Virus record (IMG/VR): IMGVR_UViG_3300044727_000112
Length of the DNA stretch: 64,000 nt
Origin: an uncultured virus (IMG/VR IMGVR_UViG_3300044727_000112)
Lineage: Duplodnaviria; Heunggongvirae; Uroviricota; Caudoviricetes
Strand: one strand, 5' to 3'
Position numbers and translations under genes: made by a program. Numbering within the stretch: the stretch's first letter is position 1; every line of letters starts with the position of its first letter. A model generated the notes under the pieces. The model saw only the letters and a list, made by a program, of their open reading frames with translations, made no database searches and was not told where the DNA came from. Positions 10,027-34,209 of this stretch are shown here, one piece after another.

Positions 10027-12020
10027 AGCGCCTCTCCATAAATAAAAGACAACACCTCATCGAGCTCCATAGTCGCAAGCCATGCCTGACAATCACGCAC
10101 ACCATAAGAGATCACGATCTCATCGTTTTCGATAAAATACGCCAGTCCTGCAGCGAACTCGATCTGACGGTCATGAAAGAAAAACGGCGGCGAGATCCGC
10201 TCTATCCGGCCATCAGATAAAAAAACAACGAACCGATGCTGATAATATCGATTAGAACGATCAGGAATGGTCCGTGCCTCATGAACCAAAGCAAGCCATA
10301 GCCGATCATCGACTTTGACAACCTGTGACCCTCCACTAATATGCGAAACATCAAAATCAAAATCATGCTGTGCGATCACCTCACCCTTGGAGTTGACCAA
10401 TGTCCCGAGCCGGTAAACAAACTGAAGTTCGTCCCCTCCATCAGACCATGGCATCGACCACGGCATCCAGTTCTTCTGATGAACACGATGACTTGGAAGG
10501 ATTTGTTTCCAGTTGTCTCCGTAGCAACAACTCCCGCTCCCCTCTGAGCGATCAAGTGGCGCTAGAACTTGTTCGCACCATCCTTCGGGGGTCAGTTCTC
10601 GAACGGTCGAGAGTGTCCAAAGTTCTTGACCACGCTGAAAAAGCCGTGAGTCCTCAAACCCACGCACCATCTGATATTTCGGCTCTGGAAAATTTTCAGG
10701 AAGACCTATCTCTCGCCAGTCGTCAGGGCCAGAGCCAATAAAATTGCGAGTACAAATAGGATGATCACCAGCGAGCGAGCCATCGCTGGCGCGAATCCGA
10801 TATTGGCCTTCTGGAGTGATTGTGTAGTTGACCGTCCGCACCAATGTAAGAAGCTTGCCAGCATGATTGATCACCGATGGATTGCAATCGACATAGCCGT
10901 CAGGCGGAATGAACTGAATCCGCTTGGTCTGGAATGACGGCACCGCTGCCGCCAGCGGCTGCAGATACCAAAATTGGTTGAACCGCGCCTGGACACTACC
11001 CTCCAGCGCCAGCTTATTGGTCTCCTTGGCCCCGCGAGAACGACGGTGCTCGTCGTAATAAGCGCAGATCGCAAACTCTTCTCTCAGACCAGTCTTATAG
11101 ACATAATCATTGATGAAAAGGAGATCGCCTCTGGGCACTGAAAATCCCAGTCCAGGCTCAGAGAAGAGCAAGCTGGTGAAATTTTCTCCTCGTACTCGGA
11201 AATAGCTCGCAAGTTCATAGATGGGCTCTGCTCGCGAGGGACGCATAGAATAAGCGCGAAGCATTTCCCACAAAAAATGAACGTGGTCCCCGAGATTTCG
11301 GTGACAGTGCGCAAGCCGCATTTGAGCGTACCACTGCTCTTCTGCGTAGCCGCCAAGCTCAACCCGCCTTCGATAGTGCGTAATAGCATCGTTGAACCTC
11401 CCAGCATCGTAATACGACTGCGCCAGATAAAAATGATAGCGTTCGATCAATCCCGGACTTGTTTCCGTAGCGAGCGCCTGCTCCAGTAGAGCAATATCTC
11501 GAGCAAACTTGTCAGGCCGATTATAGCCGTCAGCATGATCCACAAAATCAGCACCAGCAATAACACCGGATGATGGAACATCCAGATATTCATGGGTAAC
11601 TCCAGCGTAATTACCTGTCGCCTGCCGTGACACCAGACGCTTGTTGTAGTAGCCAAGCGCCCCGCCAACCTGCCGCATGTCATAAGCCGGACCGCCATTT
11701 AACTTCTTAGTCCAGTCCGGGTTCTCAACCCGCAACTCCATGTCAGCGTCAGCCAGCAGCAGATAGTCCCACTCCAGCGGAGACTCGCGTGCCCGCTGCA
11801 GGGCGACATTGCGGGCCTGAGAGAAATTATCGAACGGCGCATAGTGCAGTTCGAACGGCTTGCGGGCGCCCGCAAACAACCGCGATATCTTCTCCGGCGT
11901 CCGGTCTTCCGAACCAGTATCGACCACGATGGCGTAGTCGACATATGGCAACAGACTGCGGATGCAGCGTTCAATCACTGCCTCTTCATTTTTTACAATG
12001 GCGTTCCAAGCAATCTTCAT
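10023..12020 (-). CDS. GT2 glycosyltransferase + TPR repeats + C-terminal beta-propeller (glycoside hydrolase-like)
   Basis: IVKNEE...DTGSED...ARN...LADAD...THE; FYLAQSY TPRs; NPSV, FEDSRLF, KNWMPW, IEFAAGL propeller motifs. Confidence 0.85.
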   Translation of the reverse strand: MKIAWNAIVKNEEAVIERCIRSLLPYVDYAIVVDTGSEDRTPEKISRLFAGARKPFELHYAPFDNFSQARNVALQRARESPLEWDYLLLADADMELRVENPDWTKKLNGGPAYDMRQVGGALGYYNKRLVSRQATGNYAGVTHEYLDVPSSGVIAGADFVDHADGYNRPDKFARDIALLEQALATETSPGLIERYHFYLAQSYYDAGRFNDAITHYRRRVELGGYAEEQWYAQMRLAHCHRNLGDHVHFLWEMLRAYSMRPSRAEPIYELASYFRVRGENFTSLLFSEPGLGFSVPRGDLLFINDYVYKTGLREEFAICAYYDEHRRSRGAKETNKLALEGSVQARFNQFWYLQPLAAAVPSFQTKRIQFIPPDGYVDCNPSVINHAGKLLTLVRTVNYTITPEGQYRIRASDGSLAGDHPICTRNFIGSGPDDWREIGLPENFPEPKYQMVRGFEDSRLFQRGQELWTLSTVRELTPEGWCEQVLAPLDRSEGSGSCCYGDNWKQILPSHRVHQKNWMPWSMPWSDGGDELQFVYRLGTLVNSKGEVIAQHDFDFDVSHISGGSQVVKVDDRLWLALVHEARTIPDRSNRYYQHRFVVFLSDGRIERISPPFFFHDRQIEFAAGLAYFIENDEIVISYGVRDCQAWLATMELDEVLSFIYGEAL

Positions 12021-15656: not shown

Positions 15657-15798
15657 CGGCAAGGGCAGTGGCAGCTACCCCATCCCCGACAAATCGCACG
15701 CCAGGAACGCGCTTGCCCGTGCATCAGGCAAAGCAGTTGAAGCCAAGGTGCGCGCCAAAGTGAAAGCCAGATTCCCTGATATTGGCAAAAATGATTGA
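15577..15798 (+). CDS. small basic phage protein (DUF6582-like)
   Basis: MAKL...FALPG...YPIPDKSHARNALAR; AGGAG RBS. Confidence 0.65.
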   Translation: MAKLSMRSRNSLASSSFALPGKGKGPSGKGSGSYPIPDKSHARNALARASGKAVEAKVRAKVKARFPDIGKND

Positions 15799-15892
15799 AC
15801 TCACTCCACTGTACGAGCTCGCACGTAAATACGGCACTGACAAGGGCGGCTGCGGTGCTGGCGAAGTGCTACTGGTGGGCGCATGGCCGTAA
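15791..15892 (+). pseudogene. N-terminal remnant of a sugar O-methyltransferase-like gene
   Basis: MIELTPLYELARKYGTDKGG... stops after 33 aa. Confidence 0.5.
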
Positions 15893-19709: not shown

Positions 19710-20596
19710 TGGGAGGGTTTTTTTGGTTTTTGGAATTTTGGAAATTGATTTTTTGGGTTTTTAGAATTTTGGAAATTGATTTTTTGGGTTTTTAGATTTT
19801 CGTCCCGCATATAATTAGCTTTGGTAACTAATTTGAATAAGTATTTTAATACCTCATAGTATTTTAATACCATTGGATTTTTGGGGTGGTAGTTATTTCA
19901 TACCTCCAGGAAAAAGATATGCGCGGGGCCGGCCGCCTGGCCACCCTCTGGGTGGGGTCACCCCCTACCCCTACACCACAGACCACGGCTGCTGGCCAAC
20001 TCGAGAGGCAATTAAAACGGTACCGGAATATTGGTAGATGTGTAGGTAGAAATTAATTCATAATAAAAAACCTAATGATATCAATGCATGGTCTCGGACA
20101 TAATATCCGCACCCCTGTCCGACCGGTCAAGAGCTCGAGTCCAGAGCCCCAAACCGGATTCCTAAAAAACCAATGAATCCAATGACTTAGAATTAATCTT
20201 TTTTCACAATCTCGGAATCCGCTCCAAAAAAAATAGAGAGACCTCTCCCAGACAATCACTCAAAATCTCACAAGCAAACAATTACCTAATTATATAGACT
20301 CGTAACGAATAAAATTATACCTTCATGTAAGCTATTGATTCTGAATGAAAATAAATTGTCGATAGAGATTCTTGTCAAATTTTTAATTATTTAGTTACAA
20401 ATGGTCCTAATCGCGGGAAGAGCCCAAAGTACCCCCTGATCGAGGCCTCTATACCTCGAAAACGCGAGATTCCGAGATTGTTAGGATCAAACCTTTTCAC
20501 CGGGCCCTGCCGTCCAGCGCGATTTTTTTGGTTGCGCCCGAAAAAAATCTATAATGCCTTGATTCCATTGAATAAAAAAATTATTTTTGCAATTGA
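19710..20596. other. AT-rich non-coding region: putative genome end/packaging site or origin
   Basis: About 900 bp without a credible ORF; repeats, a GC-rich core at 19921-19980 and IHF-like sites. Confidence 0.6.
19715..19800. repeat. 31-bp tandem repeat with phased T-tracts
   Basis: GAATTTTGGAAATTGATTTTTTGGGTTTTTA at 19733 and 19764, plus degenerate flanks. Confidence 0.9.
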
Positions 20597-24591: not shown

Positions 24592-24772
24592 CTCTGGTCT
24601 GGCCACGGTGGGGGAGGTCGCGCATTTGCGCGGTGTCTCCCGCCAGGCCATCCAAAAGGCTACTCGCAATCTGCAGCCGCGCCGCCGGCGCGAGGTCTAT
24701 CTTCGTAATATTTGGAAGCAAACAATCAAGCGAACAATAAAGCGAACGATCAAGCAACTGCGATCCAGCTAG
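24527..24772 (+). CDS. small HTH DNA-binding protein
   Basis: ATVGEVAHLRGVSRQAIQK HTH; GAGG RBS. Confidence 0.7.
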   Translation: MNKSTVVNPEDIKQQAAMSMISSGLATVGEVAHLRGVSRQAIQKATRNLQPRRRREVYLRNIWKQTIKRTIKRTIKQLRSS

Positions 24773-24885
24773 GCACCGCTCCGATTGCCTGTATCGGTTA
24801 GCGTGGGAGTCGATATTTCGTAACGAAAGTCTCGCCTGCGGAGAGCGGTGCCTTTGGTGGTGCGCATGAACACCACCGCTCATGG
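24771..24885 (+). ncRNA. candidate structured RNA leader
   Basis: 11-bp closing stem 24771-81/24843-53 enclosing two hairpins, then a GGTGGTG/CACCACC hairpin. Confidence 0.45.
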
Positions 24886-24958
24886 TCCGTTCAAGGCTTG
24901 ACAACCCACGCATCAATTCAAATGGAGGGGATACGATGATTGAGCAAGAGGCCGGAAC

Positions 24959-31732: not shown

Positions 31733-32431
31733 ATGAAGATGGACGCAACTACGGCTCAACCGAAACCGTTTGCCTGGTCATATAGCCGCTTGAAGGCATA
31801 CGAGGATTGTCCGCGCCGATACGTCGAAACTCAGATCAAGAAGACCTTCACCGACAAGACCAGCGACCAGACCTGGGGCGATCTCGTTCATGCGGCACTG
31901 GCACAAGCTTTGCGTGCTGGCACCCCACTGCCGACCAAGTTCCAGATCTACCAAAAATGGATCGACAAGGTCGTAGATACCGAAGGCGAGCTCCTGATCG
32001 AGGACGATTGCCGCTGGGCGATCAATCGCGAGCTCAAGCCGACGACATGGTTTGCCAAGGATGTCTGGCTGCGGTGCATTGCCGATGCCGTCAAGCTTGA
32101 TTTCAACCCGCCTGCAGCCGCCCTGGTGGTCGACTGGAAGGCCGGCAAGAGCGCCAACGTGGATCCGATCCAACTGACACTGACCTCGTTGATGATGTTC
32201 TTGCAGTTCCCCAAGCTCAAATGCGTGCGATCGGACTTCGTCTGGCTGCAAGAGAATTATCAGACCACCCAGACGCTCTACCGCAACGAAGCCGCCGATC
32301 ACTGGGCGCTGCTGATGCCGCGGGTGGAGCGACTGCGGCAGGCGTCCTTGAAGGACAATTTCCCACCCCAGCCTGGGCGTTTCTGCAAACGCTGGTGCCC
32401 GGTATCAAGCTGCGAATATCATGGAAAATGA
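31733..32431 (+). CDS. PD-(D/E)XK (Cas4-like) exonuclease
   Basis: WSYSRL...CPRRY, G..VH, D...VDWKAGK, C..C....C. Confidence 0.85.
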   Translation: MKMDATTAQPKPFAWSYSRLKAYEDCPRRYVETQIKKTFTDKTSDQTWGDLVHAALAQALRAGTPLPTKFQIYQKWIDKVVDTEGELLIEDDCRWAINRELKPTTWFAKDVWLRCIADAVKLDFNPPAAALVVDWKAGKSANVDPIQLTLTSLMMFLQFPKLKCVRSDFVWLQENYQTTQTLYRNEAADHWALLMPRVERLRQASLKDNFPPQPGRFCKRWCPVSSCEYHGK

Positions 32432-32691
32432 CAGTGAACGAAATTTGGAAATCAGGGCAGCACGGCTACACGATATCAAAATGCGAAATTTTGTCCGCCG
32501 ATAAAGCAACGCCAGAAGAGTTGGCAGAAGATCCAGATCATCCTTGGCCTGATGGTTTTGTCTTGTTTCGTTGCATCGTGCATTATCCTGGCCGAGAGGA
32601 CAAATATGTCAGTATTCATGTAGCAAGTAGAGATGAGTTGGAGACCCAAGAATTCTGGAAAAATTTTTGGGGGGAGGTGAACCAGTTATGA
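32428..32691 (+). CDS. hypothetical protein (lower GC)
   Basis: ATGA overlaps on both sides. Confidence 0.55.
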   Translation: MTVNEIWKSGQHGYTISKCEILSADKATPEELAEDPDHPWPDGFVLFRCIVHYPGREDKYVSIHVASRDELETQEFWKNFWGEVNQL

Positions 32692-33191
32692 GCACATATT
32701 ATCGCGGCACATTGCCAGATGGTGAAGACGAGCGACTGCATGCTCTTACCCTAAAAATTCTTCAATACTTACAAGCTGGACCAGTAACAAATAAATTTTT
32801 TGCGGCTCGTGTTTGTCTGGATTACCGGCGACGTATTAATGAATTACGTCGTAAACATGGATACCACATCAAAGCCACACGTATAAAAGGAGGGAGAGGA
32901 ACATTCGAATTTAGGCTATTAGATAAGCCTGAACCTGAATGGGAAGTAGTTGTTAAAACTACAGTACCGGGCGGACAATTTTTGATATATGCAGTTGATG
33001 TCAACGCTGAGACTGAAACAGAAGCACGTAACAACGCCCCTCGTAAATATGTACGCAATGAAATAATATCTGTTCGCAGAAAAGAAAAACCACCTGAAAC
33101 GGAATCACCACAACCACAACCACAACCACAACCACAACCACAACAACCTTTCTTTTCAGGATACTTCAATCATGCCAAAGTAGGAGATTAA
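32688..33191 (+). CDS. winged-HTH protein with (QP)n tail
   Basis: GGAGG RBS; RRINELRRKHGYHI; AT-rich codons. Confidence 0.6.
   Translation: MSTYYRGTLPDGEDERLHALTLKILQYLQAGPVTNKFFAARVCLDYRRRINELRRKHGYHIKATRIKGGRGTFEFRLLDKPEPEWEVVVKTTVPGGQFLIYAVDVNAETETEARNNAPRKYVRNEIISVRRKEKPPETESPQPQPQPQPQPQQPFFSGYFNHAKVGD
33108..33143 (+). repeat. (CCACAA)6 microsatellite
   Basis: Six perfect hexamers encoding PQ. Confidence 0.9.
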
Positions 33192-33192
33192 A

Positions 33193-33417
33193 ATGACCCT
33201 AGGAGAATATCGCGTCGGCATCAGCTTCAATCCCAGCAAAAATCCTGCAGTCGATGAGATCAAGCGCGCTGCTGCAGATCTGATTGATCTGATCGACGAC
33301 ATTAAATCTGGCGACGATAGTAAGGAGATTCCTCGTCTCAAGGCGCTGGCCATGACCCACATCGAGGATGCAGCAATGTGGGCAGTCAAGGCCGCGACCA
33401 AACAACCATTCGTGTGA
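33193..33417 (+). CDS. Acb2/Tad1-like helical hairpin protein (putative nucleotide-signal sponge)
   Basis: FNPS...VDEIK...RLKALAMTHIEDAAMWAVKAAT. Confidence 0.65.
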   Translation: MTLGEYRVGISFNPSKNPAVDEIKRAAADLIDLIDDIKSGDDSKEIPRLKALAMTHIEDAAMWAVKAATKQPFV

Positions 33418-33422
33418 ATAAG

Positions 33423-33543
33423 TTCTAGCCACCTCGCCGCTACCTTCGGGTGCGCTGGCTATGCAAGTCCAAGGGTGAGGTGCAAGGACTTGCTAGAAGC
33501 GGGACCGGTCAGAAACGCGACAACCGGGGAGTCAGGAGCCCGC
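33423..33543 (+). ncRNA. candidate pseudoknotted structured RNA
   Basis: Three-way junction, cUUCGg tetraloop, 7-9-bp loop-loop complementarity, second hairpin domain. Confidence 0.6.
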
Positions 33544-33571
33544 GAGACCCGGCAAGCGAGAGGGAGATAAT

Positions 33572-33850
33572 ATGCCAAATGATGAAACCGCTGCCTTCGA
33601 CGTGGTAACGCCCGATAATATCCAAATGGCGAGGCTCCTTGCTGTGCGCGAGGCTGCCAAGGTGTTCGGAGCAGTGCTGCGTGAAAATCTCCCACCTGGG
33701 TCCGACAAAACGTATGTCATGCGGACCTTCAGAACCGCCATGATGTGGGCGAGCGTGGCGATCATGAAACAGCCAGACGGCAGCCCGCGAGCTCCGGACT
33801 ATTTACCAGATCATCCTGCTCCTGGCGACCAAGGGAGCGTGCCGCTTTAA
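33572..33850 (+). CDS. second, divergent Acb2/Tad1-like helical hairpin protein
   Basis: F...P...Q...VREAAK...LPPGSDKTYVMRTFRTAMMWASVAI; GGAG RBS. Confidence 0.55.
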   Translation: MPNDETAAFDVVTPDNIQMARLLAVREAAKVFGAVLRENLPPGSDKTYVMRTFRTAMMWASVAIMKQPDGSPRAPDYLPDHPAPGDQGSVPL

Positions 33851-33855
33851 AATTC

Positions 33856-34209
33856 GTGACGACGGTGCTTGAGAAAGTAATCAAAGCAGCAGTACATAAA
33901 AGGCTACGAGAAATCGGAGCCTACCAACATTGGCCAGTCCAACTGGGCATGGGCGATCGTTGTCTGGATTGCCACGGTTGCTACCAAGGTGCTTATTTCG
34001 CCGTCGAGACCAAGCGCCCTGGTGCCAAGCCCACTAAAATTCAGTGGGTGACCATAGAAAATATCCAAGCTGCCGGCGGATTAGTATTTGTAATTGATTC
34101 TTTGGAGGCTGCCAGTGCCCTGTTCTCCGATCATCCACCCCCGCTCGCAAAGGCTCCTAGTGCCATACGATCGCGTCTGCGCGTTGTGGCCGGACGCTCA
34201 GACGATTAA
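33856..34209 (+). CDS. VRR-NUC domain nuclease
   Basis: EKVIK...LDCHGC..G.YFAVETKRPG.KPT..Q...AGG. Confidence 0.8.
   Translation: MTTVLEKVIKAAVHKRLREIGAYQHWPVQLGMGDRCLDCHGCYQGAYFAVETKRPGAKPTKIQWVTIENIQAAGGLVFVIDSLEAASALFSDHPPPLAKAPSAIRSRLRVVAGRSDD

Follow-up and report, generated by a model that had tools for sequence, protein, structure and literature searches.

The DNA analyzed here, referred to below as the window, is a 64,000-nucleotide (nt) segment of a phage genome from an uncultured virus of the Caudoviricetes (IMG/VR record IMGVR_UViG_3300044727_000112). Within a block of plus-strand genes between 28.6 and 40.2 kb, a gene for an Acb2/Tad1 hairpin-domain protein is followed by a gene for a weak Acb2/Tad1-like protein, and the two are separated by a 154-nt gap (33418-33571). 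Comparison with homologs from other uncultured viruses leaves very little doubt that this gap holds a real, conserved structured RNA. The alignment shows it as an element of about 130 nt on the plus strand (33420-33552), with two pseudoknotted domains. The positions of its parts and of the flanking features are given in Table 1.

Homologs were collected by pattern scans of viral contigs followed by blastn comparison with the gap. An initial scan for the element's 8-base-pair (bp) hairpin with a free loop returned 116 viral loci, mostly chance matches, 15 of which aligned to the gap over 61 to 154 nt (blastn E values of 1e-10 to 1e-60). A tighter pattern returned 18 loci, all of them true homologs, and a pattern taken from the middle of the second domain, which made no demand on the hairpin, yielded one further member, L265, whose hairpin is a variant. 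As collected in this way, the family has 10 distinct sequences, which come from 19 contigs of uncultured viruses in addition to the window and an identical metagenome copy. Two additional patterns were also run: one for the mid-region of the "type A" sequences described below (3 loci, all known already) and one for the region of the mini-hairpin Pc (15 loci, made up of 13 known members and 2 chance matches in coding sequence). Among 80 viral loci carrying the upstream gene, no similar gap was seen except in an identical twin contig, and the next open reading frame (ORF) mostly followed within a few nt. Of 11 metagenome loci carrying the downstream gene, only L083, an identical copy, had such a gap. 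When three family members were compared by blastn with 50,697 genomes of isolated phages, no real match emerged, and no copy of the element was found in plasmids. The hairpin pattern, applied to one genome for each of 185,579 prokaryotic species, gave 29 matches, none of which extended beyond the hairpin (best blastn E value, 0.038).

For the alignment, we used the GCC/GGC core of helix P2 and a conserved U located five bases before the end of the P3 loop as anchors, and no free gaps were allowed. In the first domain, the short helix P2 encloses a pyrimidine-rich strand and a variable arm, with the hairpin P3 beside it; the P3 loop pairs back to the enclosed strand to form pseudoknot 1 (PK1), with conserved A-rich loop residues flanking this pairing. 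The inner four pairs of P2 (33427-30/33457-60) were formed in 38 of 40 alignment cells, with the fourth pair present as A-U, C-G, or G-C. For PK1, whose 3' strand is held in the P3 loop, the first five pairs (33432-36/33476-80) were formed in all 50 cells by 10 different strand pairs, among them CCUCG/UGAGG, CUACG/CGUAG, CCCAA/UUGGG, and UCCCU/AGGGA. When the partner strand was slid by 1 to 3 positions, 16 to 25 of ~50 cells were paired, and when the 5' strand was set against the loops of other members, pairing was complete in 7 of 90 combinations. P3 itself was paired in 80 of 80 cells, with an invariant sequence in 9 of the 10 members; the exception, L265, reads GCUAGUCC/GGACUGGU, in which an A-U pair has become U.G and a G-C pair G.U, a two-sided change in one variant. 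Across the family, loop lengths range from 11 to 14 nt, and the arm within P2 varies from 6 to 38 nt. In L211 and L212, this arm is a hairpin capped by a GNRA loop, and L210, L265, and L215 lack it.

In the second domain, helix Pa encloses a conserved and mostly unpaired stretch together with Pc, the loop of which pairs with the 3' tail as pseudoknot 2 (Pb). Pa was formed in 50 of 50 cells by 7 distinct strand pairs. Pc, a 3-bp helix found by RNAalifold, shows an A-U to G-C replacement in two members and a C-G to U-A replacement in two. Its loop holds the 5' strand of Pb (33524-28), for which the first five pairs were formed in 44 of 45 cells by 6 distinct strand pairs, and cross-partners from other members paired fully in 5 of 64 combinations. 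The family also divides into two states that are perfectly associated between positions 33494-98 and 33505-10: UAGAA with CGGUCA in four sequences (type A, to which the window belongs) and UUCAA with G(C/U)GACA in six (type B).

Additional support came from a MAFFT alignment, in which P3, Pa, and Pb were paired in 93% of cells and 6 pairs changed on both sides, a value reached by 0 of 500 shuffles, with the reservation that this count carries a register error in Pb. RNAalifold applied to the same alignment independently recovered P3 and Pa. About 35 columns are invariant in the 3' 100 nt of the alignment, and with five covarying helices, of which two are pseudoknots, the element displays the conserved structure and conserved unpaired nucleotides that characterize riboswitch-type RNAs. 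G.U pairs occupy ten cells and would read A.C on the opposite strand; as such pairs are tolerated on one strand only, the functional molecule is an RNA from the plus strand, the same strand as the genes.

The element is noncoding, since stop codons break each of its three frames in 5, 7, or 8 of the 10 sequences (in L210, no frame is open) and its loops and arms vary in length by amounts that are not multiples of 3. A small ORF at 33450-33608 was rejected because no frame is kept across the 10 sequences. In the window, the frame that follows the TGA of the upstream gene is open through the gap, for which we estimate a chance expectation of about one quarter at such G+C content. A role as a stimulator of readthrough or frameshifting was also rejected, as the frame differs between L213 and L218 and 4 to 5 members have no adjacent stop codon. 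A tblastx search with the gap found no protein remnant.

Known RNA families do not account for the element. A covariance-model search of the whole window with the 4227 models of Rfam 15 gave no matches at gathering scores, the region 33300-33700 gave none at E values of up to 10, and nine homolog loci gave none on the element at E values of up to 5. ARAGORN found no transfer RNA or transfer-messenger RNA genes in the window.

An earlier note on this DNA, made from the sequence alone, had proposed an unrecognized pseudoknotted RNA at this locus, which it could match to no known Rfam family, and had named collection of homologs and covariation as a check. The proposal has held up well, given the empty Rfam searches for the window and homologs and the compensatory changes in five helices among 10 distinct homologs. 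All of the complementarities it named are present in the window when checked base by base, including the 8-bp arm GCAAGTCC/GGACTTGC (Table 1), and conservation across the family extends to its kissing pseudoknot (CCTCGCC/GGTGAGG, our PK1, with controls far below the observed 50 of 50 cells) and to its GCC/GGC arm (P2), 8-bp hairpin (P3), and GCGGG/CCCGC helix (Pa). Other parts of its model need correction. The TTCTA/TAGAA helix, with which it closed a three-way junction, can pair in the window (5 bp), in L215 (4 bp), and in L210 (3 bp), but is not conserved elsewhere, and P2 uses its bases in other members. The UUCG hairpin is present in the window sequence but belongs to an arm that varies across the family. 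The inner CCGG/CCGG stem is missing from the six type B sequences, and Pc and Pb take its place. The fold, which had been placed as ending about 20 nt before the ribosome binding site (RBS), ends instead at 33552, about 6 nt before it.

Table 1. Positions of the structured RNA, the neighboring features, and the complementarities named in the earlier note (window coordinates)
Feature	Position	Strand	Sequence or description	Remarks
5' motif	33420..33425	+	AAGUUC	GUUC lies 2 nt before GCC of P2; GTTC in 8/10 members, L220 and L221 differ
P2, 5' strand	33426..33430	+	UAGCC	Pairs with 33457-61
PK1, 5' strand	33432..33438	+	CCUCGCC	Pairs with P3 loop, 33474-80
Variable arm	33440..33456	+	GCUACC-UUCG-GGUGCGC	cUUCGg loop at 33442-51
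P2, 3' strand	33457..33461	+	GGCUA	Pairs with 33426-30
P3 hairpin	33463..33493	+	GCAAGUCC (33463-70), 15-nt loop AA-GGGUGAGG-UGCAA, GGACUUGC (33486-93)	Loop holds PK1 3' strand (33474-80)
Junction (type A)	33494..33498	+	UAGAA	UUCAA in six members
Pa, 5' strand	33499..33503	+	GCGGG	Pairs with 33539-43
Conserved, mostly unpaired stretch	33504..33518	+	ACCGGUCAGAAACGC	Several columns invariant or nearly so in the alignment
Pc mini-hairpin	33519..33533	+	GAC (33519-21), loop AA-CCGGGG-A, GUC (33531-33)	
Purine-rich linker	33534..33538	+	AGGAG	R-R-R-A-G across the family
Pa, 3' strand	33539..33543	+	CCCGC	Pairs with 33499-503
Pb (pseudoknot 2), 3' strand	33548..33552	+	CCCGG	Pairs with 33524-28
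Upstream gene	33193..33417	+	74 amino acids, Acb2/Tad1 hairpin-domain protein	Outside the RNA
RBS	33559-65	+	GAGGGAG	Precedes the downstream gene; outside the RNA
Downstream gene	33572-33850	+	92 amino acids, weak Acb2/Tad1-like protein	Outside the RNA
Named complementarity	33423-27/33494-98		TTCTA/TAGAA	
Named complementarity	33428-31/33456-59		GCCA/TGGC	
Named complementarity	33442-51		ACC-TTCG-GGT	
Named complementarity	33432-38/33474-80		CCTCGCC/GGTGAGG	One G.U
Named complementarity	33463-70/33486-93		GCAAGTCC/GGACTTGC	8-bp arm
Named complementarity	33499-503/33539-43		GCGGG/CCCGC	
Named complementarity	33505-08/33524-27		CCGG/CCGG	

Members of an anti-defense protein family lie beside the RNA. 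In addition to the genes flanking the gap, the plus-strand block encodes a DUF4406 protein, a PD-(D/E)XK nuclease, and an SNF2 helicase, together with what is, in our reading, a family-A-type DNA polymerase and a large ORF that we read as a primase-like protein. The upstream protein matches Pfam PF24729 (E value of 5.2e-16; 59 bits, with a cutoff of 27) and has 419 relatives in viral contigs. The downstream protein falls below that cutoff (E value of 8.1e-5; 23.2 bits); it has eight homologs, four of which are tagged PF24729, and their alignment fixes its start codon. The two genes form a tandem of Acb2/Tad1 hairpin-family members, with 43% identity over 23 residues and a shared MW(A)...KQP motif. 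In a sequence search of the PDB, the downstream family had no match, and the upstream protein matched only Tad1, at an E value of ~0.24.

The gap, described in the earlier note as rare in a densely packed operon, is the largest between co-directional genes of the block; across the whole window, it is about the fifth largest by a crude ORF call. The four longer gaps lie at 24670-24958 (289 nt, separating divergent genes), 15657-15882 (226 nt), 20260-20477 (218 nt), and 19710-19885 (176 nt), and none of these matched the family model, R1, or Rfam. Fifteen nt of the P3 loop region (33468-33482) recur exactly on the minus strand at 10377-10391, with an in-window E value of 0.007. No other repeat of the gap was found inside the window, and the gap itself contains no internal repeat.

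Gene order in relatives places the RNA in a changeable part of the genome. In L003, a complete syntenic relative, the nuclease gene is followed by a 142-amino-acid (aa) ORF, an Acb2 gene, a VRR-NUC-like gene, and the SNF2 helicase gene, and neither the gap nor a second Acb2-like gene is present. In L084 and L085, the homolog of the downstream gene overlaps the stop codon of the nuclease gene with no RNA between them, and the corresponding interval of L084 contains the second Acb2-like gene and a 187-aa ORF. In the window, where the upstream gene, RNA, downstream gene, and VRR-NUC gene follow in that order, the interval (32428-33860) begins at the end of the nuclease gene (31733-32431) and holds an 87-aa ORF, a 174-aa ORF, the first Acb2-like gene, the RNA, and the second Acb2-like gene. 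These arrangements indicate a variable accessory slot between the nuclease gene and the VRR-NUC-like gene, with the gap at a mosaic junction inside it. The 174-aa ORF (32667-33191), located just 5' of the first Acb2-like gene, has a (PQ)6-type repeat near its C terminus and matched no family. Contigs from soil DNA carry the window arrangement unchanged (four soil DNA runs, with no base change in the gap) and, being identical in the gap, add no covariation. They also hold a relative that departs from the window sequence at 33408, with a continuation that resembles the L003 junction and runs the upstream gene directly into VRR-NUC-type sequence.

The distribution of the element is not tied to any one phage lineage or neighboring gene. 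Model R1 matched once in the window and in none of 89 related loci, and when whole records were scanned, each of 13 carriers proved to have a single copy. Of 33 records bearing Acb2, 31 had no match, including the complete syntenic relative of the window phage, G002, and the other two had matches of only ~16 bits. Carriers range in G+C content from 47% to 63%. No two of them have more than 7 protein families in common, and no family occurs in all eight of the genomes compared; the window and G002, for comparison, share 31. The element is always found on the strand of an upstream gene and close behind it, often beginning 0 to 10 nt past that gene's stop codon, and the gene downstream differs in every lineage: seven such proteins gave 0 of 7 matches to Pfam and 1 of 7 to PHROGs, to a family of unannotated function. 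In L265, the following genes are convergent, so that L265/L286 has no gene downstream on the same strand. In the L213/L218 lineage, the element is located within an unannotated gene block that is possibly a structural operon, and in L210 it lies two small ORFs upstream of what we read as a terminase-like gene. Because the carriers are unrelated, the closest complete relative lacks the element, and the downstream genes are unrelated as well, the data are best described by a self-contained, horizontally moving RNA module rather than by a dedicated switch, and the element is probably such a gene-independent module and not a leader of any particular gene.

Some individual copies have peculiarities of their own. 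In L212 (genome G037), an imperfect direct repeat of ~35 nt, unique in the 55-kb genome, brackets the element (reverse strand, ~456-505 and ~631-680). It could be the footprint of an insertion; the contig ends ~500 nt from the element. Direct repeats were rejected as a general mark of mobility, since they occur in L212 only (1 of 10). In L210 (minus strand), three tandem copies of a 21-nt unit occupy the ~65 nt directly upstream of position 1262 and precede the element. These units imitate its 5' motif and pseudoknot strand, reading GGUUC-GCC and then a G.U-rich match to the P3 loop, and could be competing loop partners or a slippage duplication. In L265 (minus strand), a 12-nt string right after the 3' strand of Pa equals the 5' start motif of the L213-type element and can act as a mismatched 3' strand of Pb, by tandem or circular ancestry or by chance.

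The interpretation that we tentatively prefer, while rating it at somewhat less than an even chance, is that the RNA acts in trans by binding a host factor, as a decoy, sponge, or regulator, and is not a ribozyme or a switch. As it directly adjoins the upstream stop codon and leaves no room for a promoter, it would be transcribed together with the flanking genes, and it would then function as an independent RNA and not as a leader for a neighbor. As a stable accessory RNA (a "moron"), it would act on a conserved factor of the host, which would recognize the invariant P3 hairpin and the conserved loops. The window phage would have acquired it into the variable accessory slot between two sponge-like genes. 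A trans-acting role fits all ten contexts, the conservation of P3 in sequence and not only in pairing, and the location in a slot of anti-defense-family genes. Several observations weigh against this interpretation. The only ground for a host factor is that the eight records compared, several of which are incomplete, have no phage protein in common. The family is small, with two of its 10 distinct sequences close to each other, and the invariance of P3 is partly a matter of ascertainment, since three scans required this hairpin and it varies in the lone member found without it. No RNA run was listed as carrying the element sequence, and a promoter and terminator scan around the window copy found none inside the gap; a convincing terminator follows the element in 1 of 10 members (L215), the hairpins in L221 and L212 not being significant. 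No pairing partner was identified for the 5' GUUC motif, no regular helix accounts for the covariation of the type A/B block, and L215 has a plain GC hairpin in place of the Pc/Pb pseudoknot, all of which are left unexplained by the proposed role. The folding energy of the whole gap is unremarkable compared with dinucleotide shuffles (minimum free energy [MFE] z scores of +0.50 on the plus strand and -0.24 on the minus strand), and neither domain taken alone gives a signal (for domain 1, a z score of -1.48, with 36 of 500 shuffles as good). For domain 1, the nested model of the earlier note has an energy of -16.6 kcal/mol, versus -29.6 kcal/mol for a competing MFE fold that turns the pseudoknot strands into a nested helix and disrupts P3. 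Finally, an RBS or start codon lies 3 to 25 nt past the last helix in 6 of 10 members, a spacing that would also fit a cis-acting leader.

That last observation, along with the 6 nt between the last helix and the RBS in the window, is part of the case for the RNA being a riboswitch or protein-binding operator that controls the downstream gene according to some general cue, for example an immune or second-messenger nucleotide. The element has the complexity of an aptamer, the RBS spacing and the terminator of L215 (a 12-bp hairpin and U7 run directly after the element; z score of -2.44) could represent both kinds of expression platform, and the window copy sits between two Acb2/Tad1 hairpin-family genes. 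We nevertheless consider this distinctly unlikely. The downstream genes are unrelated and unannotated, L265 has none on that strand, and the copy of L213/L218 sits in its unannotated, possibly structural block; homologs of the downstream gene exist without the element, no conserved alternative helix was found to involve the RBS or a terminator, and the recurrent position ahead of one pathway that is usual for riboswitches is absent across the seven downstream proteins. The more specific proposal of the earlier note, induction of the sponge-like gene by a switch sensing an immune nucleotide, is disfavored at the family level for the same reasons (differing downstream genes, none in L265/L286, and no RNA in L084 and L085). 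Alternatively, the element might be a new self-cleaving or self-processing ribozyme that cuts a polycistronic transcript, possibly near the 5' GUUC. Twister, pistol, hatchet, and hammerhead ribozymes occur in phages sporadically, between genes, and without association with a particular gene. Such a role would suit the compact, multiply pseudoknotted fold with many conserved unpaired nucleotides, the sporadic placement in unrelated phages between co-directional genes and on their strand with no gene association, and, for about 6 of 10 members, a conserved block that starts 0 to 10 nt past the stop codon of the upstream gene. It would need no phage protein partner, and the distribution of the element fits it equally well. 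We hold it to be unlikely all the same: no model of a known ribozyme matches even at E values of up to 10, and the exchange of the second pseudoknot for a plain hairpin in L215 means that this part is no strict catalytic requirement.

Less demanding roles are harder to reconcile with the conservation. A passive structure, which might stabilize a 5' or 3' end, block processing, or insulate genes from translational coupling, would be consistent with a tightly folded, G+C-rich element that in every case follows closely on a gene of the same strand and that can end a transcription unit (L265 and L215). It would have no need of ~35 invariant columns, a hairpin of invariant sequence, and two pseudoknots, nor would it be expected to spread among unrelated phages as a conserved sequence, and we judge it quite improbable. 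It is very improbable indeed that the gap has no RNA function and is an element of DNA (a recombination scar, an attachment or packaging site, or an origin) or a degraded gene. The mosaic junction of the variable slot, the direct repeats of L212, and the position of the L210 copy near a terminase-like gene could be taken that way, but the compensatory changes maintain five helices, including two pseudoknots, with G.U pairs on one strand; the scan of 185,579 species found nothing beyond chance hairpins, which speaks against an attachment site, and tblastx detected no gene remnant.

Comparison with known systems places the element among the structured noncoding RNAs of phages, where we file it as a putative new family. 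Orphan structured RNA motifs have been predicted in phage and viral metagenomes by Weinberg et al. 2017 (PMC5737381) and by Fremin, Bhatt, and Kyrpides 2023 (PMC10690425), the latter with 10,006 candidates. As far as those motifs are described in these sources, the element resembles them in being intergenic, supported by covariation, and derived from uncultured viral contigs, with some copies upstream of genes. It is unlike catalogued motifs in that it matches no family in Rfam 15, and it is relative to Rfam 15 that we call the family uncatalogued, the 10,006 candidates of PMC10690425 entering this comparison by their general description only. Among the literature matches listed for the P3 hairpin motif, there were only unrelated primers or oligonucleotides.

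Architecturally, the closest parallels are with riboswitches and ribozymes. In the preQ1-II/III, SAM-II/V, c-di-GMP-II, and THF riboswitches, a hairpin loop pairs with a flanking strand. The element shares with them the loop-to-strand pseudoknots, A-rich loops, and conserved unpaired positions, as well as, in the window, a last helix near the RBS; it differs in matching no Rfam riboswitch model, in having downstream genes that share no family, and in having one member with no downstream gene. With phage ribozymes (twister, pistol, hatchet, hammerhead, and HDV-like), it shares a compact pseudoknotted form and sporadic occurrence between co-directional genes, while differing from all known ribozymes in the lack of a model match at E values of up to 10. 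Rfam models for hammerhead, twister, twister-sister, pistol, hatchet, HDV, glmS, hairpin, VS, and hovlinc gave no match at permissive E values, and to our knowledge its order of helices fits none of the twister, pistol, hatchet, hammerhead, and HDV-like ribozymes. A resemblance to the P4 region of RNase P (AAGUCC...ACAGAA) was dropped, as no RNase P model matched.

Pseudo-ToxI antitoxin RNAs and RNA anti-CRISPRs are RNA-based counter-defense elements of phages. The element is like these and like morons in being a small, autonomous module that is patchily distributed, absent from the closest relative, and located among anti-defense-family genes. It departs from the ToxI and RNA anti-CRISPR types in its single copy per genome, with no tandem array and no internal repeat. 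A ToxI-like type III antitoxin RNA was for that reason rejected, the neighbors also not being toxins, and no resemblance was found to CRISPR repeats or to the RNAs of defense systems among those compared.

RNAs with multiple pseudoknots and many conserved unpaired nucleotides are rare, and, once characterized, they have often proved to be ribozymes, riboswitches, or specific binders of protein. We regard it as possible, though doubtful, that the element represents a new class of catalytic or ligand-binding RNA. Even if its function is mundane, a well-supported family is added to the catalogue of phage RNAs, the secondary structure first proposed for it is corrected, and the fold is now defined well enough for compensatory mutants, cleavage assays, and probing. 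If it is indeed a new class, an RNA with its own biochemistry would be exchanged by soil phages as a free-standing module and would have been recruited, in the window phage, between two nucleotide-sponge-like genes. If it acts as a switch after all, it could be the first phage RNA to be found sensing a host immune signal. An RNA that travels alone between unrelated soil phages must confer something on its carriers without a phage-encoded partner, and its presence in a slot beside anti-defense-family genes makes an RNA-based role in the conflict between phage and host a testable possibility.

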